This document shows, piece by piece, positions 34,496 to 62,972 of a stretch of 64,000 bases of DNA. The stretch is from an uncultured archaeon (lineage in GTDB: Archaea; Iainarchaeota; Iainarchaeia; Iainarchaeales; GCA-2688035): the NCBI GenBank assembly GCA_964354805.1, contig CAYHBD010000042.1:18038-82037 (forward strand). Reading direction: 5' to 3'. A model generated the notes under the pieces. That model did no database searches, was not told the origin of the DNA, and worked only from the letters and a program-made list of their open reading frames with translations. Position numbers and translations under genes: made by a program. The first letter of the stretch is position 1. Each line of letters opens with the position of its first letter.

Positions 34496-34557
34496 GGCGA
34501 TGATGAGGTTAACACCATCCGAGCGCAAGCTGTGAGGAGACAACTCAACACTGAGCC
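34496..34557 (+). ncRNA. C/D box sRNA
   Basis: GGCG-ATGATGA(C)-ggttaacaccat(12 nt)-CCGA(D')-GCGCAAGC-TGTGAGGA(C')-gacaactcaaca(12 nt)-CTGA(D)-GCC. The spacing is canonical for archaeal sRNAs, and GGC/GCC forms the terminal stem. Confidence 0.65.
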
Positions 34558-34604
34558 ACATTCGATTTCATTCCAAGATTTTTAGGCAGCCGTCTTTTAA
34601 TCGG

Positions 34605-35228
34605 TTATTCGATTATAATCACTTCACCGTCTCTCAGAGTTTTAAACGGAATCTTATTTTTATTGCAATATTCAACTTCTTTGTCAATGTCTGCGGACTC
34701 AGGATGGTTAGATTTATAGTGCGGGAGAATAATGTAATCAAGGACTCCAAGGCCTTCCCAAATTGTTTTCTGAAGCTCTTGGTAAGGCCTGTCATTGGGG
34801 TCGTCAACAATTTGCAGTGCCTTGAAATCAGGAGCCAACACGCATATGCCGGCACTATATCCTGCATACACAAAATCGTTTCTTTTAAGAAGCTCTTTAA
34901 AAATTACGTCAAAACCACTCAATTTCATTGCCTGTCGCAGAATAAATGTATTTCCTCCTCGGACGAATATGCCTCCAAATTCATTCAATTTTTTCCGCAA
35001 TTCATCAGTCTTTCCAAAAAAATTCTTTAAATCAAGGTATTCTACGGTTAAGCCCAACCCTTCCAAACTTTCAATATCCAGTTTTTCCCACCTGTTTTTC
35101 TTGACCCAATCAACATTAGAATAATCACAGGCGTTTGGAATGTAAGCAATTTTTTTGTTGTTGGGCATTAGCCCGGCTAACTCGCCAGCCTTATTCCCCA
35201 GCCTAAAAGAGGACAAATAAAACTTCAT
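34605..35228 (-). CDS. pepE: peptidase E / S51 family dipeptidase
   Basis: GGIFVRGGNTFILRQAM..VYAGYSAGICVLAP..ILPHY match the S51 Ser-His motifs. Confidence 0.8.
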   Translation of the reverse strand: MKFYLSSFRLGNKAGELAGLMPNNKKIAYIPNACDYSNVDWVKKNRWEKLDIESLEGLGLTVEYLDLKNFFGKTDELRKKLNEFGGIFVRGGNTFILRQAMKLSGFDVIFKELLKRNDFVYAGYSAGICVLAPDFKALQIVDDPNDRPYQELQKTIWEGLGVLDYIILPHYKSNHPESADIDKEVEYCNKNKIPFKTLRDGEVIIIE

Positions 35229-35277
35229 ATAAAAACCAGTTCATCGAGGTTATTAAAACCTATAAGTATTCTTAGTT

Positions 35278-35335
35278 TTAATAGGGTTAACACCGTCTGA
35301 CCGAAAGGTGTGAAGATTTAACTCAACACTGAGCC
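35278..35335 (+). ncRNA. degenerate second copy of the C/D sRNA (C box lost)
   Basis: ttaatag-ggttaacaccgt-CTGA-CCGAAAGG-TGTGAAGA-tttaactcaaca-CTGA-GCC. The D', C' and D boxes and both guides are conserved, but the C box is TTAATAG. Confidence 0.45.
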
Positions 35336-58652: not shown

Positions 58653-58908
58653 AAAGAACGCATAACAAAAATAGAAAGAATTCAGGTGATAGACTTGAAC
58701 AAGGAAATTATTCTAATACCCAAAAAGAAAGGCAGCCTGCGCAATTTAGTTGGAAAATTCAGGGCAGGCAAGAGATTTGATGCAGTCAAAGAGCACGACT
58801 TGATTGTTGCAGGTTTTAGATAACGTCGTTTATTGACACAATCAATTTGACCATTTAAAAAAGGGGCTCCAATCTGATTTAAATCAATTTTCCCCCATTC
58901 TGTTAATT

Positions 58909-59460
58909 ATGAAAGTCCTTGCAATCTGCGGTTCGCCGCGAAAAGGAAACACAGAAGCAATGCTCAAAAGAGTGCTTGACGGAGCAAAAAGCAAGGGAGC
59001 AATAATTGAGCTTGTTCTTTTGAGGGACAGGAAGATTGAATTTTGCGACGGCTGTGATACCTGCTGGGGCACTGGAAAAGGCTGCAGGGCAATGGATGAA
59101 ATGCAGCCGTTGTACGGGAAAATGTTTGCTGCTGACGCAATTGTTTTCGGTTCGCCAAATTACTTCAGCAATTATTCAGCCCAAATGAAAACTTTTGTTG
59201 ACAGGCTAAACCCTTACTGCAAGCCAAGCAGGTTCAAGGGAAAAAAAGCGGCAATTGTATGCGTCGGAGGCCAAAGGCTGCAAAATGTAAAGAGATGCGA
59301 GCGCGCGCTGCGCCTTGTTGTAAGCGGTTTGAAAATGCTGCTGGTTGGCAGCATTGTTGCAAAAGCGGAAAATCCGCTTGAAATATTAAAGGACGAGAAA
59401 GTAATGCAGCAATGCTTTGAATTAGGGCAAAAGCTGGCTGAAAGTCGATTCCTATTTTAA
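58909..59460 (+). CDS. NAD(P)H-dependent FMN reductase / iron-sulfur flavoprotein-like
   Basis: MKVLAICGSPRKGNTE, C..C..C...C, and VFGSPNYFSNYSAQMKTFVDR. The 3' end is altered by a cassette insertion (see findings). Confidence 0.8.
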   Translation: MKVLAICGSPRKGNTEAMLKRVLDGAKSKGAIIELVLLRDRKIEFCDGCDTCWGTGKGCRAMDEMQPLYGKMFAADAIVFGSPNYFSNYSAQMKTFVDRLNPYCKPSRFKGKKAAIVCVGGQRLQNVKRCERALRLVVSGLKMLLVGSIVAKAENPLEILKDEKVMQQCFELGQKLAESRFLF

Positions 59461-59500
59461 ATAGGAAAGTTTAAAAATACTATTATTTATAGTAATTAAT

Positions 59501-59746
59501 ATGACTGAGGTTGTTGTTACCAGGCACGGGCAAATTACCCTCACAAAAGAGCTGAGGGAAGAACTTGGCATAAAAGAGGGGGATAAAGTGATTGTGAACA
59601 AGGAAAATGGTTTTGCGATTATTTCAAAGAAAGACATATCAGTTTGGGATAGGTTGGGTGACTTTCTGCCTGACAATTTCGAAAAAGTGCTGGAAAAAAT
59701 CAGATCGGATAGCACTAAAAGATTCAAAGCCGTTGGTTTAATATGA
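59501..59746 (+). CDS. vapB: AbrB/MazE/SpoVT-type antitoxin (VapB)
   Basis: VVTRHGQITLTKELREELGIKEGDKVIV is a swapped-hairpin motif. It overlaps vapC by 4 nt (ATGA). Confidence 0.75.
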   Translation: MTEVVVTRHGQITLTKELREELGIKEGDKVIVNKENGFAIISKKDISVWDRLGDFLPDNFEKVLEKIRSDSTKRFKAVGLI

Positions 59747-60174
59747 AAGTACTGCTTGACACCTCTTTTCTTGTTGCAATCGATAGAAAGAGCAAGGAAG
59801 CGATAGCATTCGCAAAAAAGCTTGTTCAACGTGACGCAGAGCTGTGGATTTCAACCATAACTGTCTCAGAGATAATGACAGGCGCTTACTTGAGAAAAGA
59901 TTTTAAAGAAGCGATTAGCAATGCAAGGCTTGCCTTGGCACAGTTCCAATGGCAAGACCTTGATGCAGGCATTGCAATAATATTAGGGGAATTACTTGCA
60001 TTTCAAATAACACAAGGCAGCAAAATTGAGTACCAAGACAGCGCAATTGCAGCAACAGCGATTGAATTAAAGGCAGATTACCTGGTTTCAGAAAACAAAA
60101 AACACTTTATAATATTTCCAATATTAAAGAACAAAGTAATGACAATAAAGGAAGCGAACGAAAAAATAAAGTAA
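59743..60174 (+). CDS. vapC: PIN-domain toxin (VapC)
   Basis: MKVLLDTSFLVAI, TVSEIMTG, YQDSAIAATAI, and LVSENKKHF match the PIN acidic quartet spacing. Confidence 0.8.
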   Translation: MKVLLDTSFLVAIDRKSKEAIAFAKKLVQRDAELWISTITVSEIMTGAYLRKDFKEAISNARLALAQFQWQDLDAGIAIILGELLAFQITQGSKIEYQDSAIAATAIELKADYLVSENKKHFIIFPILKNKVMTIKEANEKIK

Positions 60175-60263
60175 TGCAGCAATGCTTTGAATTGGGGCAA
60201 AAGCTGGTTGCGGAATAGTGCTCCCTGAAAAGCAAAGACTGGGTTTCTGGGGAAGGCACGTTT

Positions 60264-61031
60264 TCATTTAATGCAAACGTATTGGTAGAAGTCTGCGTTT
60301 GGATTGTATCCTTTTTTGTAGTCAGAGAATTGCTCAATTTTTGTGAATCCCACGCCTTTGAGTAAACCTGAAAGCTCATTTCTTTTAAAAGGGTAAAGAA
60401 TAAGATAGCCTTTCTTCCCTGTTCTTTCATCTGTGTATTGCATCCTGACTTTATCTTCAGAAATTTCAATAGGTTCCCCATGAACTTTATCCCCACAGTA
60501 AACATATTTTTTGGAATAACTGAATTTGCCTTCTTTCAAGATTTCTTCTCTTTTGTCCAAAAAGTACTGATAGTTTCTTTCATCAATAATTAAAATTCCG
60601 CAGTCTCTTAAAAGAAATAAAAAATTTTTGAGGGTTTTAAGTTGATCTTCCCTTTTAAATAAGTAAGTTAACGAATTGCCAAGACATAAAACCGCGTCAA
60701 AGCGCCCCTGTTTGAAATGCTTGTCAAGCTCACGCCAATCGAATTCAGTGATGTTTAATACTGTCCCCCCTTGCTTCGCACGCTTCTGTGCTTTTTTGAT
60801 AAACAGTTTATCTAAGTCATTGCTTGTGACATCAAAGCCCTCTTTGATTAAATAAATGGAATCACACCCATCACCCATACAAGAGTCAAATACTTTTTTG
60901 CACTTGAAGCGCCTTAATTGATTAAGAAGAAAGCCCCTCTCGCCAGCTCGCCTCTTTTCCCAATCCACGAAGTCGCTCCATATTTCAACAAGAACCTTTG
61001 AATTGTAATTTTCTTGATAAACATCTTTCAT
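60264..61031 (-). CDS. class I SAM-dependent methyltransferase (glycine/sarcosine-N-MTase-like)
   Basis: Motif I is KVFDSCMGDGCDS, then VTSNDLD and FDAVLCLGNSLTYL. Confidence 0.7.
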   Translation of the reverse strand: MKDVYQENYNSKVLVEIWSDFVDWEKRRAGERGFLLNQLRRFKCKKVFDSCMGDGCDSIYLIKEGFDVTSNDLDKLFIKKAQKRAKQGGTVLNITEFDWRELDKHFKQGRFDAVLCLGNSLTYLFKREDQLKTLKNFLFLLRDCGILIIDERNYQYFLDKREEILKEGKFSYSKKYVYCGDKVHGEPIEISEDKVRMQYTDERTGKKGYLILYPFKRNELSGLLKGVGFTKIEQFSDYKKGYNPNADFYQYVCIK

Positions 61032-61094
61032 AATTAGATTAAATCCAAATTACTATTTAAAACATTTATTGCTCTTTCTATTACTGGTTTTTGA

Positions 61095-62972
61095 ATGGAA
61101 ACAGACTGGCAAAAAATCGGCTTAAAGGCAGGGTTGGAGTGCCACCAGCAGCTTGATACTGGTAAACTCTTTTGTAGATGCCCTTCTATCCTACATGAAG
61201 ATAAGCCAGACGTAAAAGTAAAAAGATACATTCGCGCAGTTGCTTCAGAATTAGGTGAATTTGATAGGGCTGCACTTGAAGCCGTTGGAAAAAAACAAGT
61301 TTTTATTTACGAAGGCTACAAAGACGTCACTTGCGAATTGGAATTCGATGAATGCCCCCCAAAACCAGCTGAACCAGAAGCGCTTGCTACAATTCTAAAA
61401 GTAGCTTTAATGTCCAAATCCGAAATTCTTGACGAAATGTTTGTGATGAGAAAAAGTGTTGCGGATGGCAGTGTGGTATCATCTTTTCAGCGCACAATGC
61501 TTGTTGCCTTGGGCGGACTACTTGAATTGGGCAGCAAAAAGGTTGGCATTCAATCGCTTGCGCTTGAAGAGGACGCTGCAAGGCCGATGGAAAAAAAAGC
61601 GGGCGAAATTGTGTACAGGCTTGACAGGCTCGGGATTCCGCTGATTGAACTGGCTACTGCGCCTGATTTGAAAACCCCGGAAGAGGTCAAAGAGTGCGCT
61701 GAAAGAATCGGAGAATTGTTCAGGAGAACGTGCAGGGCAAAGAGAGGCCTTGGAACAATAAGGCAGGACGTGAATATTTCAATTGCAAAGGGGGCGAGGG
61801 TTGAAATAAAGGGCGTGCAGGCGCTTGAGCTCATTGATGAGTATGTAAGAAGGGAAGCGCAGAGGCAGATTGCGTTGGTTGAATTGAAAGAGGAAATGCA
61901 GCACAGGAAAATAAGCGAAAAAGAATTGGGAGAAGGCGAAATTGCCGATTTGAGCCAGATTTTTTCAAAAAGCGAGTGCAAATTTTTGCATGGAAAAAGC
62001 GTTTTTGGCATCAGGCTGCAAAAAATGCAGGGATTGCTTGGAAAAGAGCTGCAGCCAGACAGAAGATTTGGAACAGAATTGGCAGGCTATGTAAAAGCAA
62101 GGACAGGTTTGCATGGAATAATTCACAGCGATGAGCTGCCCGCTTACGGAATAAGCGAAAGGGAAGTGGAGCAGGTTAAGCACAAATGCGATTGCATTAT
62201 GAACGATGCCTTTGTTTTGGTGCAGGCGGAAAGGGAGAAGGCTGAAAGCGCATTGCATGTTGTTGTTGAGAGATGTAAGCAGGCTTTGCTTGGAGTGCCG
62301 GAGGAAACAAGGGATGCTTTGGAGAACGGCAACACAGAGTACAGCAGGCCATTGCCAGGGGCAGCAAGAATGTACCCTGAAACAGACTTGGAGCCTGTGA
62401 GAGTTGATGAAAAATATTTGGGTGAATTGAAAAAGCAGCTGCCTTTGACAGTTGCAGCAAGGGAGAAATTGTACAGGGAGAAAGGATTGAGCACTAATCT
62501 GGTTGAGGGAATGAGGCTGAGCAATTTCGCCTGCTTTTTCGAGCAGCTGCTTGAGAAAGGGATTAATGCAACAACTGCCGCAACACTTTTGCTCGAGGGC
62601 CTGACCCAATTGAGGAGGGAGGGAATAACCGAGATTAGCAATGAAATGATTGGGAAAATTTTGCTGGCTGAAAAGGAAAAGAAAATTACCAAAGACATTT
62701 TGTTGGATGCCCTGCGCGCTTGGGCAAAGCAGCCTGAAAAAGAGCTGGAAGAGATACTGGGAGAATTGAAAATGGTGAAAGTTGCTGCAGGCGATGTGAG
62801 AAAAATCATTGCTGGCATTATTGAAAAGAACAGGCAGCTTGTTGAAGAAAAAGGCGAGCACGCAATTGGCGCGCTGATGGGAGAAGTGATGGCACATCTC
62901 AGAGGAAAAGCGGATGGCGGCGAGATCAGCAGAATCCTGAAAGAGGAACTGGGCAAGAGAGCGAAGAAATAA
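61095..62972 (+). CDS. gatE: Glu-tRNA(Gln) amidotransferase subunit E
   Basis: GLECHQQLDTGKLFCRCPS, VSSFQRT, IRQDVNISI, PGAARMYPETD, and a C-terminal GatB/YqeY-like tail. Confidence 0.9.
   Translation: METDWQKIGLKAGLECHQQLDTGKLFCRCPSILHEDKPDVKVKRYIRAVASELGEFDRAALEAVGKKQVFIYEGYKDVTCELEFDECPPKPAEPEALATILKVALMSKSEILDEMFVMRKSVADGSVVSSFQRTMLVALGGLLELGSKKVGIQSLALEEDAARPMEKKAGEIVYRLDRLGIPLIELATAPDLKTPEEVKECAERIGELFRRTCRAKRGLGTIRQDVNISIAKGARVEIKGVQALELIDEYVRREAQRQIALVELKEEMQHRKISEKELGEGEIADLSQIFSKSECKFLHGKSVFGIRLQKMQGLLGKELQPDRRFGTELAGYVKARTGLHGIIHSDELPAYGISEREVEQVKHKCDCIMNDAFVLVQAEREKAESALHVVVERCKQALLGVPEETRDALENGNTEYSRPLPGAARMYPETDLEPVRVDEKYLGELKKQLPLTVAAREKLYREKGLSTNLVEGMRLSNFACFFEQLLEKGINATTAATLLLEGLTQLRREGITEISNEMIGKILLAEKEKKITKDILLDALRAWAKQPEKELEEILGELKMVKVAAGDVRKIIAGIIEKNRQLVEEKGEHAIGALMGEVMAHLRGKADGGEISRILKEELGKRAKK

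Follow-up and report, generated by a model that had tools for sequence, protein, structure and literature searches.

A vapBC toxin-antitoxin cassette within the 3′ end of a flavoprotein gene of an Iainarchaeota archaeon, bounded by a 43-nt duplication of the gene end

The last codons of a flavoprotein gene of an uncultured archaeon (Iainarchaeota, DPANN) hold a self-contained type II toxin-antitoxin cassette, vapBC, of about 727 nt, which runs from a palindrome to the stop codon of vapC. The stretch of DNA analysed (the window) comprises 64,000 nt of contig CAYHBD010000042.1, part of a metagenome-assembled draft genome of 1.38 Mb in 49 contigs (GCA_964354805.1); all of the sequences with which it was compared are metagenomic as well. 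Comparison with relatives, some of them filled and some empty at this site, demonstrates the insertion itself and its polarity, and shows that the cassette later spread horizontally and that recombination took place within the gene's 3′ end. Loci and contigs of relatives are designated by L-numbers, species genomes by G-numbers and contigs of the archaeon's own genome by C-numbers. The coordinates of the features are collected in Table 1.

The cassette is bounded by a direct repeat of 43 nt (59398-59440 and 60168-60210), the copies of which are identical at 41 of 43 positions and spaced 770 nt apart, exactly the duplication with two mismatches that a preliminary description of this locus had proposed. 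These are the only two copies in the whole assembly (E = 8.5e-14 for the second). The same description held that the approximately 730 bp between the repeats carry only vapB and vapC, and that the second copy stands right after vapC. There is indeed no other gene in the 727-nt unit, but it also carries a promoter region with a TATA-like box and two palindromes; the position of the second copy is likewise as described, except that the stop codon of vapC (TAA, 60172-60174) falls within it. A repeat search revealed neither terminal inverted repeats linking the two cassette ends nor attC-like hairpins at these ends. The same architecture is found in independent assemblies from four sources (Logan, ENA, JGI and NCBI) and is thus not an artefact of assembly.

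The preliminary description had suggested looking for the empty site, and this is found in several relatives. In L034 and L035 the flavoprotein gene (ending in KKLVDE) is followed by GAATAGTGCTCCCTGAAAACC and then by gatE, with one copy of the repeat; in L055 and L056 the gene (ending in EKLVE) is followed by a methyltransferase gene and gatE, again with one copy of the repeat and without vapBC. In all four the single copy continues into (T/G)AATAGTGCTCCCTGAAAA, as does the sequence 3′ of the downstream copy in the window. In G009, G012 and at least nine further loci from other genera of the family the flavoprotein gene leads directly to gatE after approximately 40-270 nt, and this adjacency is ancestral in the family. 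Read in the flavoprotein frame, the downstream copy of the window gives VMQQCFELGQKLVAE followed by a stop (TAG, 60216-60218). Because it is collinear with the gene end and spacer of the empty sites, it is the original end of the gene, displaced and now non-coding, while the last codons of the gene now come from the upstream copy and the cassette edge. Homologs nearest to the flavoprotein have 178-179 residues, rather than 183, and end two to three residues past KL, which is the length predicted from the ancestral terminus QKLVAE put forward earlier; none of the orthologs ends in AESRFLF. This tail is secondary and arose through loss of a stop codon (TGA to CGA), which added four codons: in the alignment, CGA (59446-59448) stands in the window where other filled alleles have a stop (TGA in L033, TAA in L036), and the new stop (TAA, 59458-59460) is the centre of the first palindrome, P1.

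Filled and decayed alleles complete the picture. L033 contains the gene (ending in QKLAEI), vapB, vapC, a second copy of the gene end (GTAATGCGGCAGTGCTTTGAGCTCGGGAAAAAGCTGGCTGAGGAATAG), the same spacer and gatE. L036 and L040 have the gene (ending in EKLAGS), vapB and vapC, their contigs ending within vapC; L040, of the same type as L036, was the one extra, partial filled site obtained in a scan of JGI metagenomes. In G013, a species genome from another genus, the contig ends in a vapC tail (82% amino acid identity) with its stop within AAGTAATGCAG, and 3′ of this tail lie a remnant and spacer clearly of that genus' own type, followed by gatE. The assembly of G013 breaks within vapC and no close vapB copy was found in it; five other species of its genus are in the empty state. 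The preliminary description would have been contradicted by orthologs ending in AESRFLF together with a lack of the downstream copy in all relatives bearing vapBC; both L033 and G013 keep this copy. A scar allele is present in L057 (GCA_053536015.1, 3215-3865), where vapC and the remnant have been deleted and the flavoprotein is fused in frame to the last 25 or so residues of VapB, giving a chimeric product of 216 residues.

The antitoxin VapB matches the NCBIfam AbrB looped-hinge-helix family (40.8 bits, above the cut-off). Its gene lies directly upstream of the toxin gene and is translationally coupled to it, the stop of vapB overlapping the start of vapC (ATGA, 59743-59746). The VapC homologs are all approximately 143 residues in length with the stop at the same place; in 13 of them D6, E43 and D99 are invariant, and the fourth acidic position of the PIN domain is occupied by an invariant Asn (N118) instead of Asp. 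As a member of the VapBC type, VapC would be toxic and VapB would neutralize it. A PDB sequence search with VapC returned no match, and no VapC relative was found on viral contigs. Both palindromes and the TATA-like box lie within 57 nt 5′ of vapB. P1, which is kept 5′ of vapB homologs in the unrelated contexts L037, L038, L062 and L063, is likely the VapB operator. The box and the second palindrome, located 8-31 nt 5′ of the vapB ATG, are kept in these four loci and in L033 and L036; the region of the box probably represents an archaeal promoter of the leaderless type.

The homologs in these four unrelated contexts share 72-79% amino acid identity, and the similarity starts at the first palindrome and stops at the vapC stop. 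In L062 (GCA_964354825.1) a cassette of 735 nt lies 5′ of an ion-channel gene between direct repeats of 72 nt (58/72). These are unrelated to the flavoprotein gene, start 2 nt past the vapC stop and end 5 nt before the palindrome region, and it appears that in L062 a related unit was inserted for a second time, with a long stretch of a different target duplicated. Among orthologs of the channel gene, the nearest (G173, 85% amino acid identity) shares only approximately 27 nt of the repeated segment, at a contig end. No flanking repeat is present in L037, L038 or L063. As the preliminary description had noted for the window, no integrase is seen in or beside the unit, here in about ten contexts examined; the two tyrosine recombinases (PF00589) of the archaeon's own genome are on C45 and C10, not on the contig of the locus.

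The G+C content of the cassette (36.9%) compared with that of the flanking core genes (45-47%) indicates a foreign origin. When the window is compared with L033, identity is 81% over the initial 376 nt of the flavoprotein gene and 80% over gatE, versus 96-98% for positions 59354-60167; it drops to 84% in the downstream copy and then to 80%. Synonymous divergence (dS) for the flavoprotein gene versus vapB and vapC is 0.74 versus 0.13-0.15 for the window and L033, 0.51 versus 0.22-0.33 for the window and L036, and 0.70 versus 0.18-0.27 for L033 and L036. By this measure the cassette is 2-5 times younger than the host backbone. The trees conflict as well, the backbone placing L033 as the outgroup and the cassette placing it nearest the window. 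The lower dS and the conflict together mean that the cassette moved between lineages that had already diverged. The clean arrival of a cassette with target duplication envisaged in the preliminary description is therefore upheld as an insertion, but this is an old, shared and recombinant one rather than a single fresh event.

Recombination is evident at the left border. In L033 the window-type tract starts at least 44 nt 5′ of the repeat, with 1/44 mismatches and shared derived codons, versus 6-9/44 mismatches when either the window or L033 is paired with L034 or L036. The tract extends as far as the vapC stop; no more than the initial 10 nt of the downstream copy belong to it. Accordingly the upstream copies of the window and L033 agree at 42/43 positions, and the downstream copy of L033 is of a different, L034-like type. 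The upstream copy of L036 is a hybrid, with approximately 33 nt of host type (like L034 and L055) followed by cassette-type GCTGGCTG. The borders in these other lineages are mosaics, pointing to homologous recombination in the 3′ end of the gene; left crossovers at different places argue for this process and not for a fixed site-specific crossover.

The window, L033 and G013 share the position of the right junction. Here the end of vapC, AAAGTAA, matches GA(R)AAAGTAATG of the gene, a microhomology of 7-9 nt. AAAGTAA is native to vapC, because homologs from unrelated sites have the same stop region, with the stop at the same codon. We considered a derivation of the vapC tail from the flavoprotein gene (ILKNKVM versus ILKDEKVM) and rejected it; the tail is conserved in homologs at unrelated sites, so that its resemblance to the gene is a patch of microhomology. 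Use of the remnant as a clock or genus marker was also rejected, the 43 nt (approximately 80% conserved between genera of the family) being too conserved to decide alone.

Duplicated gene ends are not confined to this locus. Self-comparison of the genome for repeat pairs of 35-150 nt spaced 400-1600 nt apart gave 27 direct pairs and one inverted pair, and three of the direct pairs were checked against relatives. On C9 (28776-30289) a two-gene unit, winged-helix-turn-helix-like and ParE-like (both below Pfam thresholds), is followed by a second copy (70-84 nt, 90%) of the last 23 or so codons of a DNA-methylase-like gene; the unit is missing in 11 relatives. On C46 (1183-1948) the last 19 codons of an epimerase/dehydratase gene recur behind an open reading frame (ORF) of 170 residues present in one relative only (G016), and on C2 the last 24 codons of an ABC ATPase gene recur behind an orphan ORF of 265 residues missing in seven relatives. 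The same methylase 3′ end is duplicated in G008, from another genus (L095, 550-2589; 74 nt, 71/74), around a ribbon-helix-helix-like and PIN-like pair. The duplicated segments in the two genomes differ at their ends by 8 nt or less and the cassettes are unrelated. Since the other cassettes of the archaeon's genome mostly gave no match or a sub-threshold one with Pfam and NCBIfam, their toxin-antitoxin nature is tentative. Further accessory ORFs of the same genome lie between direct repeats of 41-135 nt that overlap the ends of neighbouring genes (Table 1). Elsewhere in the window a 51-nt direct repeat (82%; 34507-34557 and 35285-35335) surrounds a minus-strand ORF of 207 residues (34605-35228), with no tRNA called; the whole (34507-35335) is possibly another cassette of this kind.

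Other archaeal phyla gave 64 loci of the VapC subfamily; in seven of them vapBC lies between direct repeats, and in none between inverted ones. In L129, L151 and L153, from Bathyarchaeia, vapBC of the same subfamily is found between two copies of 44-54 nt (in L153, 1995-2048 and 2988-3041; 52/54) that resemble the 3′ half of a tRNA, from the T-arm through the acceptor end to CCA, and no integrase lies between the copies. Neither ARAGORN nor Rfam called a tRNA in the Bathyarchaeia repeat, which may be part of a split or intron-bearing tRNA gene. The vapBC homolog of L169 (Methanocellales) has on either side a 37-nt sequence resembling a CRISPR repeat (GTTTCAA..ATTGAAAG).

For the entry and spread of the cassette we favour an insertion anchored by homology and carried out by host recombination, to which we would give an even chance. 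DNA from another lineage, linear or in the form of a circle that recombination between the two copies had set free, would arrive with the cassette still joined to the 3′ end of the orthologous flavoprotein gene. The left side would be joined by homologous recombination of the host, with a crossover somewhere in the shared segment of the gene; on the right, the join would be made where the end of vapC (..AAAATAAAGTAA) has 7-9 nt in common with the gene (GARAAAGTAATG), 46 nt before the gene stop. With homology on one side and a join at microhomology on the other, the resident 3′ end would be pushed downstream instead of being replaced. The outcome would be a "C-terminal displacement" resembling a long target duplication, in which the upstream copy of 43-47 nt completes the gene. 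A circle integrating by a single crossover would give the same result, and no recombinase of the cassette's own would be required. Persistence would best be explained by addiction. Direct repeats 770 nt apart should readily delete the insert, and loss of vapB while VapC persists would poison the cell; such deletions would thus be counter-selected, and addiction cargo would be what survives between repeats of this type.

Insertion through homology is favoured by the mosaic left borders, the microhomology on the right, the lack of a recombinase in about ten contexts and the varying repeat lengths. Also in its favour are the same junctions at empty (L034/L035, L055/L056) and filled sites (L033, L036/L040), together with host-type remnants at the same junction in another lineage and another genus (L033, G013). 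The foreign base composition and low dS of the cassette, the decayed allele of L057 and the duplications seen in L062 and at other genes of the archaeon's own genome count for it as well. Several points weigh against it. The right junction is the same in three lineages (window, L033 and G013), so that independent illegitimate joins would need either one microhomology used repeatedly or crossovers confined to the initial 10 nt of the remnant. Only 0-7 nt separate the repeats from the functional ends (window, L062), a very tight fit where random fragments would be expected to bring passenger DNA. Homology does not account for the first insertion at any locus, gene conversion between the copies could mimic the host-type remnants, and readable junctions are few (three filled alleles on the left and three on the right).

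A wider proposal, rather unlikely in our view, is that minimal operons in these DPANN archaea, and perhaps in Archaea more widely, are routinely captured at gene or tRNA-like 3′ ends by one recombinase-independent process that duplicates 40-135 nt, with addiction modules dominating the survivors because they alone resist deletion. In a bolder and speculative form of this proposal, VapB bound to the edge palindrome, or the PIN nuclease, might help to define the cassette ends.

Site-specific integration is an unlikely source of the repeats. The 43-47 nt would then be attL and attR of an element directed to gene 3′ ends, with an integrase that either acted in trans on a cis-mobilizable element or was lost by decay, leaving behind an undeletable toxin-antitoxin module. 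Tyrosine integrases characteristically target the 3′ end of a gene, restore its reading frame and give repeats of 40-85 nt, and two tyrosine recombinases are present elsewhere in the genome; yet no integrase occurs in or adjoining the unit in any context examined. The same junction with host-type remnants in different lineages and genera would suit a fixed site, but crossover points vary from at least 44 nt 5′ of the repeat (L033) to near its 3′ end (L036). Two unrelated toxin-antitoxin-like cassettes sit behind nearly the same methylase segment of 70-74 nt in two genera; against this, the related cassette of L062 has the same ends and an unrelated 72-nt repeat, so that the cassette family has no common att. 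Decay would also have had to stop 0-7 nt from both repeats in several independent cases. The Bathyarchaeia vapBC between copies of 44-54 nt resembling tRNA 3′ halves would also fit such elements, except that this repeat was not called as a tRNA by either program.

We hold it to be equally improbable that the locus records a true long target duplication, in which a discrete linear unit would enter between nicks staggered by approximately 46 nt, fill-in would duplicate the target and later allele exchange would create the mosaics. That the cassette has identical, tight ends at two unrelated targets (window and L062) agrees with this, as do pairs of near-identical, host-type copies (41/43 in the window, 71/74 in G008, 52/54 in L153). 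Repeat length also varies across cassettes, from 41 to 135 nt, as it does in the restriction-modification cases (PMC2853133). However, no enzyme is known for such an activity. The upstream copy of L033 and the adjacent 44 nt are of donor type and its downstream copy of host type, which would call for an extra recombination event ending exactly at the junction, and the hybrid upstream copy of L036 is not expected.

It is very improbable that the cassette entered once in the distant past and was then passed on vertically, lost many times and never moved again, with gene conversion maintaining the similarity of the repeats. Such a history would account for the same junctions everywhere, the patchy distribution, the decayed allele of L057 and the vapC tail of G013, already 18% diverged, but not for a cassette dS 2-5 times below that of the host in all three pairs, the conflicting trees, or the window-type gene 3′ end that L033 carries on a distant backbone. 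A chance repeat or an assembly artefact, to which a window from a 49-contig draft might be thought prone, is already refuted by a 41/43 match unique in 1.38 Mb and by its recurrence in the four sources.

Downstream of the displaced gene end, the ancestral spacer has received a second, independent insertion consisting of one methyltransferase gene. The product resembles glycine/sarcosine N-methyltransferases of NCBIfam (192 bits, below the cut-off). This insert is missing in L033 and L034, and is present with identical junctions but without vapBC in L055 and L056; all four combinations of presence and absence of the two inserts exist. No clear target duplication was seen for the methyltransferase insert. 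The spacer between the flavin reductase and flavoprotein genes (58653-58908) is a second variable spot of the gatD-gatE block, containing an ORF of 45 residues in the window, one of 69 residues in L055 and, in L057, a pair consisting of a 78-residue ORF and a PIN gene, additional to the scar described above.

Table 1. Features of the vapBC locus in the window, and comparable repeat-bracketed ORFs on other contigs of the genome
Feature	Coordinates	Strand	Details and basis
FMN_red/flavodoxin-like flavoprotein gene	58909..59460	+	183 aa; Pfam FMN_red, E 1.4e-30, above gathering score
Upstream 43-nt repeat copy, functional gene 3′ end (..KVMQQCFELGQKLA)	59398..59440	+	repeat search
Left junction, codons E-S-R-F-L-F-stop	59441..59460	+	alignment and sequence
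Palindrome P1 (perfect), TTCCTATTT-T-AAATAGGAA, left cassette edge	59449..59467	+	seen in sequence
TATA-like box, TTTAAAAATA	59470-59479	+	seen in sequence
Second palindrome, ACTATTATTTATAGT	59479-59493	+	seen in sequence
vapB, AbrB/SpoVT-MazE type antitoxin	59501..59746	+	81 aa; Pfam MazE_antitoxin, E 1.8e-8, above gathering score
vapC, PIN-domain toxin	59743..60174	+	143 aa; Pfam PIN, 43.1 bits (cut-off 23.6), E 7.9e-11
Downstream repeat copy and GCGGAATAG, displaced gene 3′ end, now non-coding	60168..60218	+	collinear with empty sites L034, L035, L055 and with remnant in L033
Rest of ancestral flavoprotein-gatE spacer (TGCTCCCTGAAAAGCAA)	60219..60235	+	blastn collinearity with L033, L034 and L035 up to 60235
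Second, independent single-gene insertion, S-adenosylmethionine (SAM) methyltransferase (ORF 60264-61031)	60236..61054	-	36% GC; comparison with relatives
gatE, ancestral downstream neighbour	61095..62972	+	ORF list and relatives
Repeat-bracketed ORFs, own genome	C2 14239-15263, C2 26176-27048, C8 65702-66674, C16 70-796, C10 36714-37183, C40 6905-8378		

The movement of toxin-antitoxin modules between genomes without mobility genes is an old question. At this locus one insertion can be followed through filled, empty, mosaic and decayed alleles, and a related cassette inserted at another target adds to what can be tested, both by sequence and in the laboratory. Comparison of relatives that have the insert with those that lack it suggests that self-stabilizing cassettes may spread without a mobility enzyme of their own. 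For a compact DPANN genome, this means that genes can be gained inside a conserved block (gatD-flavin reductase-flavoprotein-gatE) without breaking a gene.

Elements with tyrosine integrases enter the 3′ ends of tRNA and protein genes, and their integrase-less derivatives are known as cis-mobilizable elements (CIMEs). As in these, the locus has direct repeats of the target 3′ end, the gene being whole at one border and present in part at the other; unlike them, it has no integrase, no fixed crossover point and, given L062, no att common to the cassette family. Toxin-antitoxin gene cassettes are also carried in chromosomal integrons, as in the superintegrons of Vibrio, and Ghaly and co-workers reportedly described integrons in Archaea in 2022. 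Such cassettes resemble ours in being minimal operons, each equipped with a promoter and acting as one cassette, which are presumed to stabilize their surroundings. The present cassette differs in that it has no attC-like 3′ palindrome and no attI or IntI nearby, and its flanking repeats are copies of a host gene. Transposons and miniature inverted-repeat transposable elements differ in having terminal inverted repeats and a short duplication, in place of the 43-47 nt seen here. As a toxin-antitoxin system the pair shares with type II VapBC an AbrB-type antitoxin gene overlapping a PIN toxin gene and palindromes across the promoter; the invariant N118 of this subfamily is a difference.

Closer to the mechanism that we favour is the displacement of C-termini in Rhs and contact-dependent inhibition (CDI) toxins and in effector-immunity arrays of the type VI secretion system (T6SS). 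For such displacement, Kirchberger and colleagues are said to have invoked homology-facilitated illegitimate recombination in 2017; Jackson and colleagues (in 2009) and de Vries and Wackernagel (in 2002) reportedly treated C-terminal displacement or such recombination earlier. There, as proposed here, new downstream genes come in on DNA homologous to the 3′ part of a resident gene, the end of which is displaced downstream as an orphan remnant, and homology on one side is paired with a short-homology join on the other. In those systems the new C-terminus changes function (the toxin tip), whereas here the gene end is a neutral anchor and the cargo an unrelated toxin-antitoxin operon.

In architecture the locus is most like the insertions with long target duplication described for bacterial restriction-modification complexes (Nobusato et al. 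2000, Gene 259:99; Furuta, Abe & Kobayashi 2010, NAR 38:2428, PMC2853133). That class is defined by direct repeats of more than 30 bp, an empty site with one copy in a relative and the lack of a mobility gene (PMC2853133). Repeat lengths vary; the start or stop of an adjacent gene often falls within the repeats, and in H. influenzae 46-bp repeats overlap gene 3′ ends (PMC2853133). The authors settled on no mechanism but suggested breakage of DNA by the cargo, and no archaeal case passed the restriction-modification screen (PMC2853133). Like those complexes, vapBC is a small unit of the addiction type. The vapBC insert has direct repeats of 43 nt (41/43), and the empty sites L034/L035 and L055/L056 have one copy that aligns to both repeats and their flanks. 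The insert is shorter than 20 kb and without a mobility gene, and the repeat is not dispersed, with two copies in the genome. The cargo here is a toxin-antitoxin pair, not a restriction-modification system, and the class is invoked for its architecture only; the host is an archaeon, and the mosaic borders show homologous recombination in the duplicated segment. Since the cargo is a toxin-antitoxin pair, DNA breakage by the cargo cannot be the cause here. The locus thus argues against DNA cutting by the cargo as the origin of such duplications and suggests host recombination as the means of entry and addiction as that of retention. If the wider proposal of capture at 3′ ends were true, long target duplication would be a general route of gene gain through host recombination and not a property of restriction enzymes. 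What is new is the extension of the long-target-duplication architecture to toxin-antitoxin cargo and to the Archaea.

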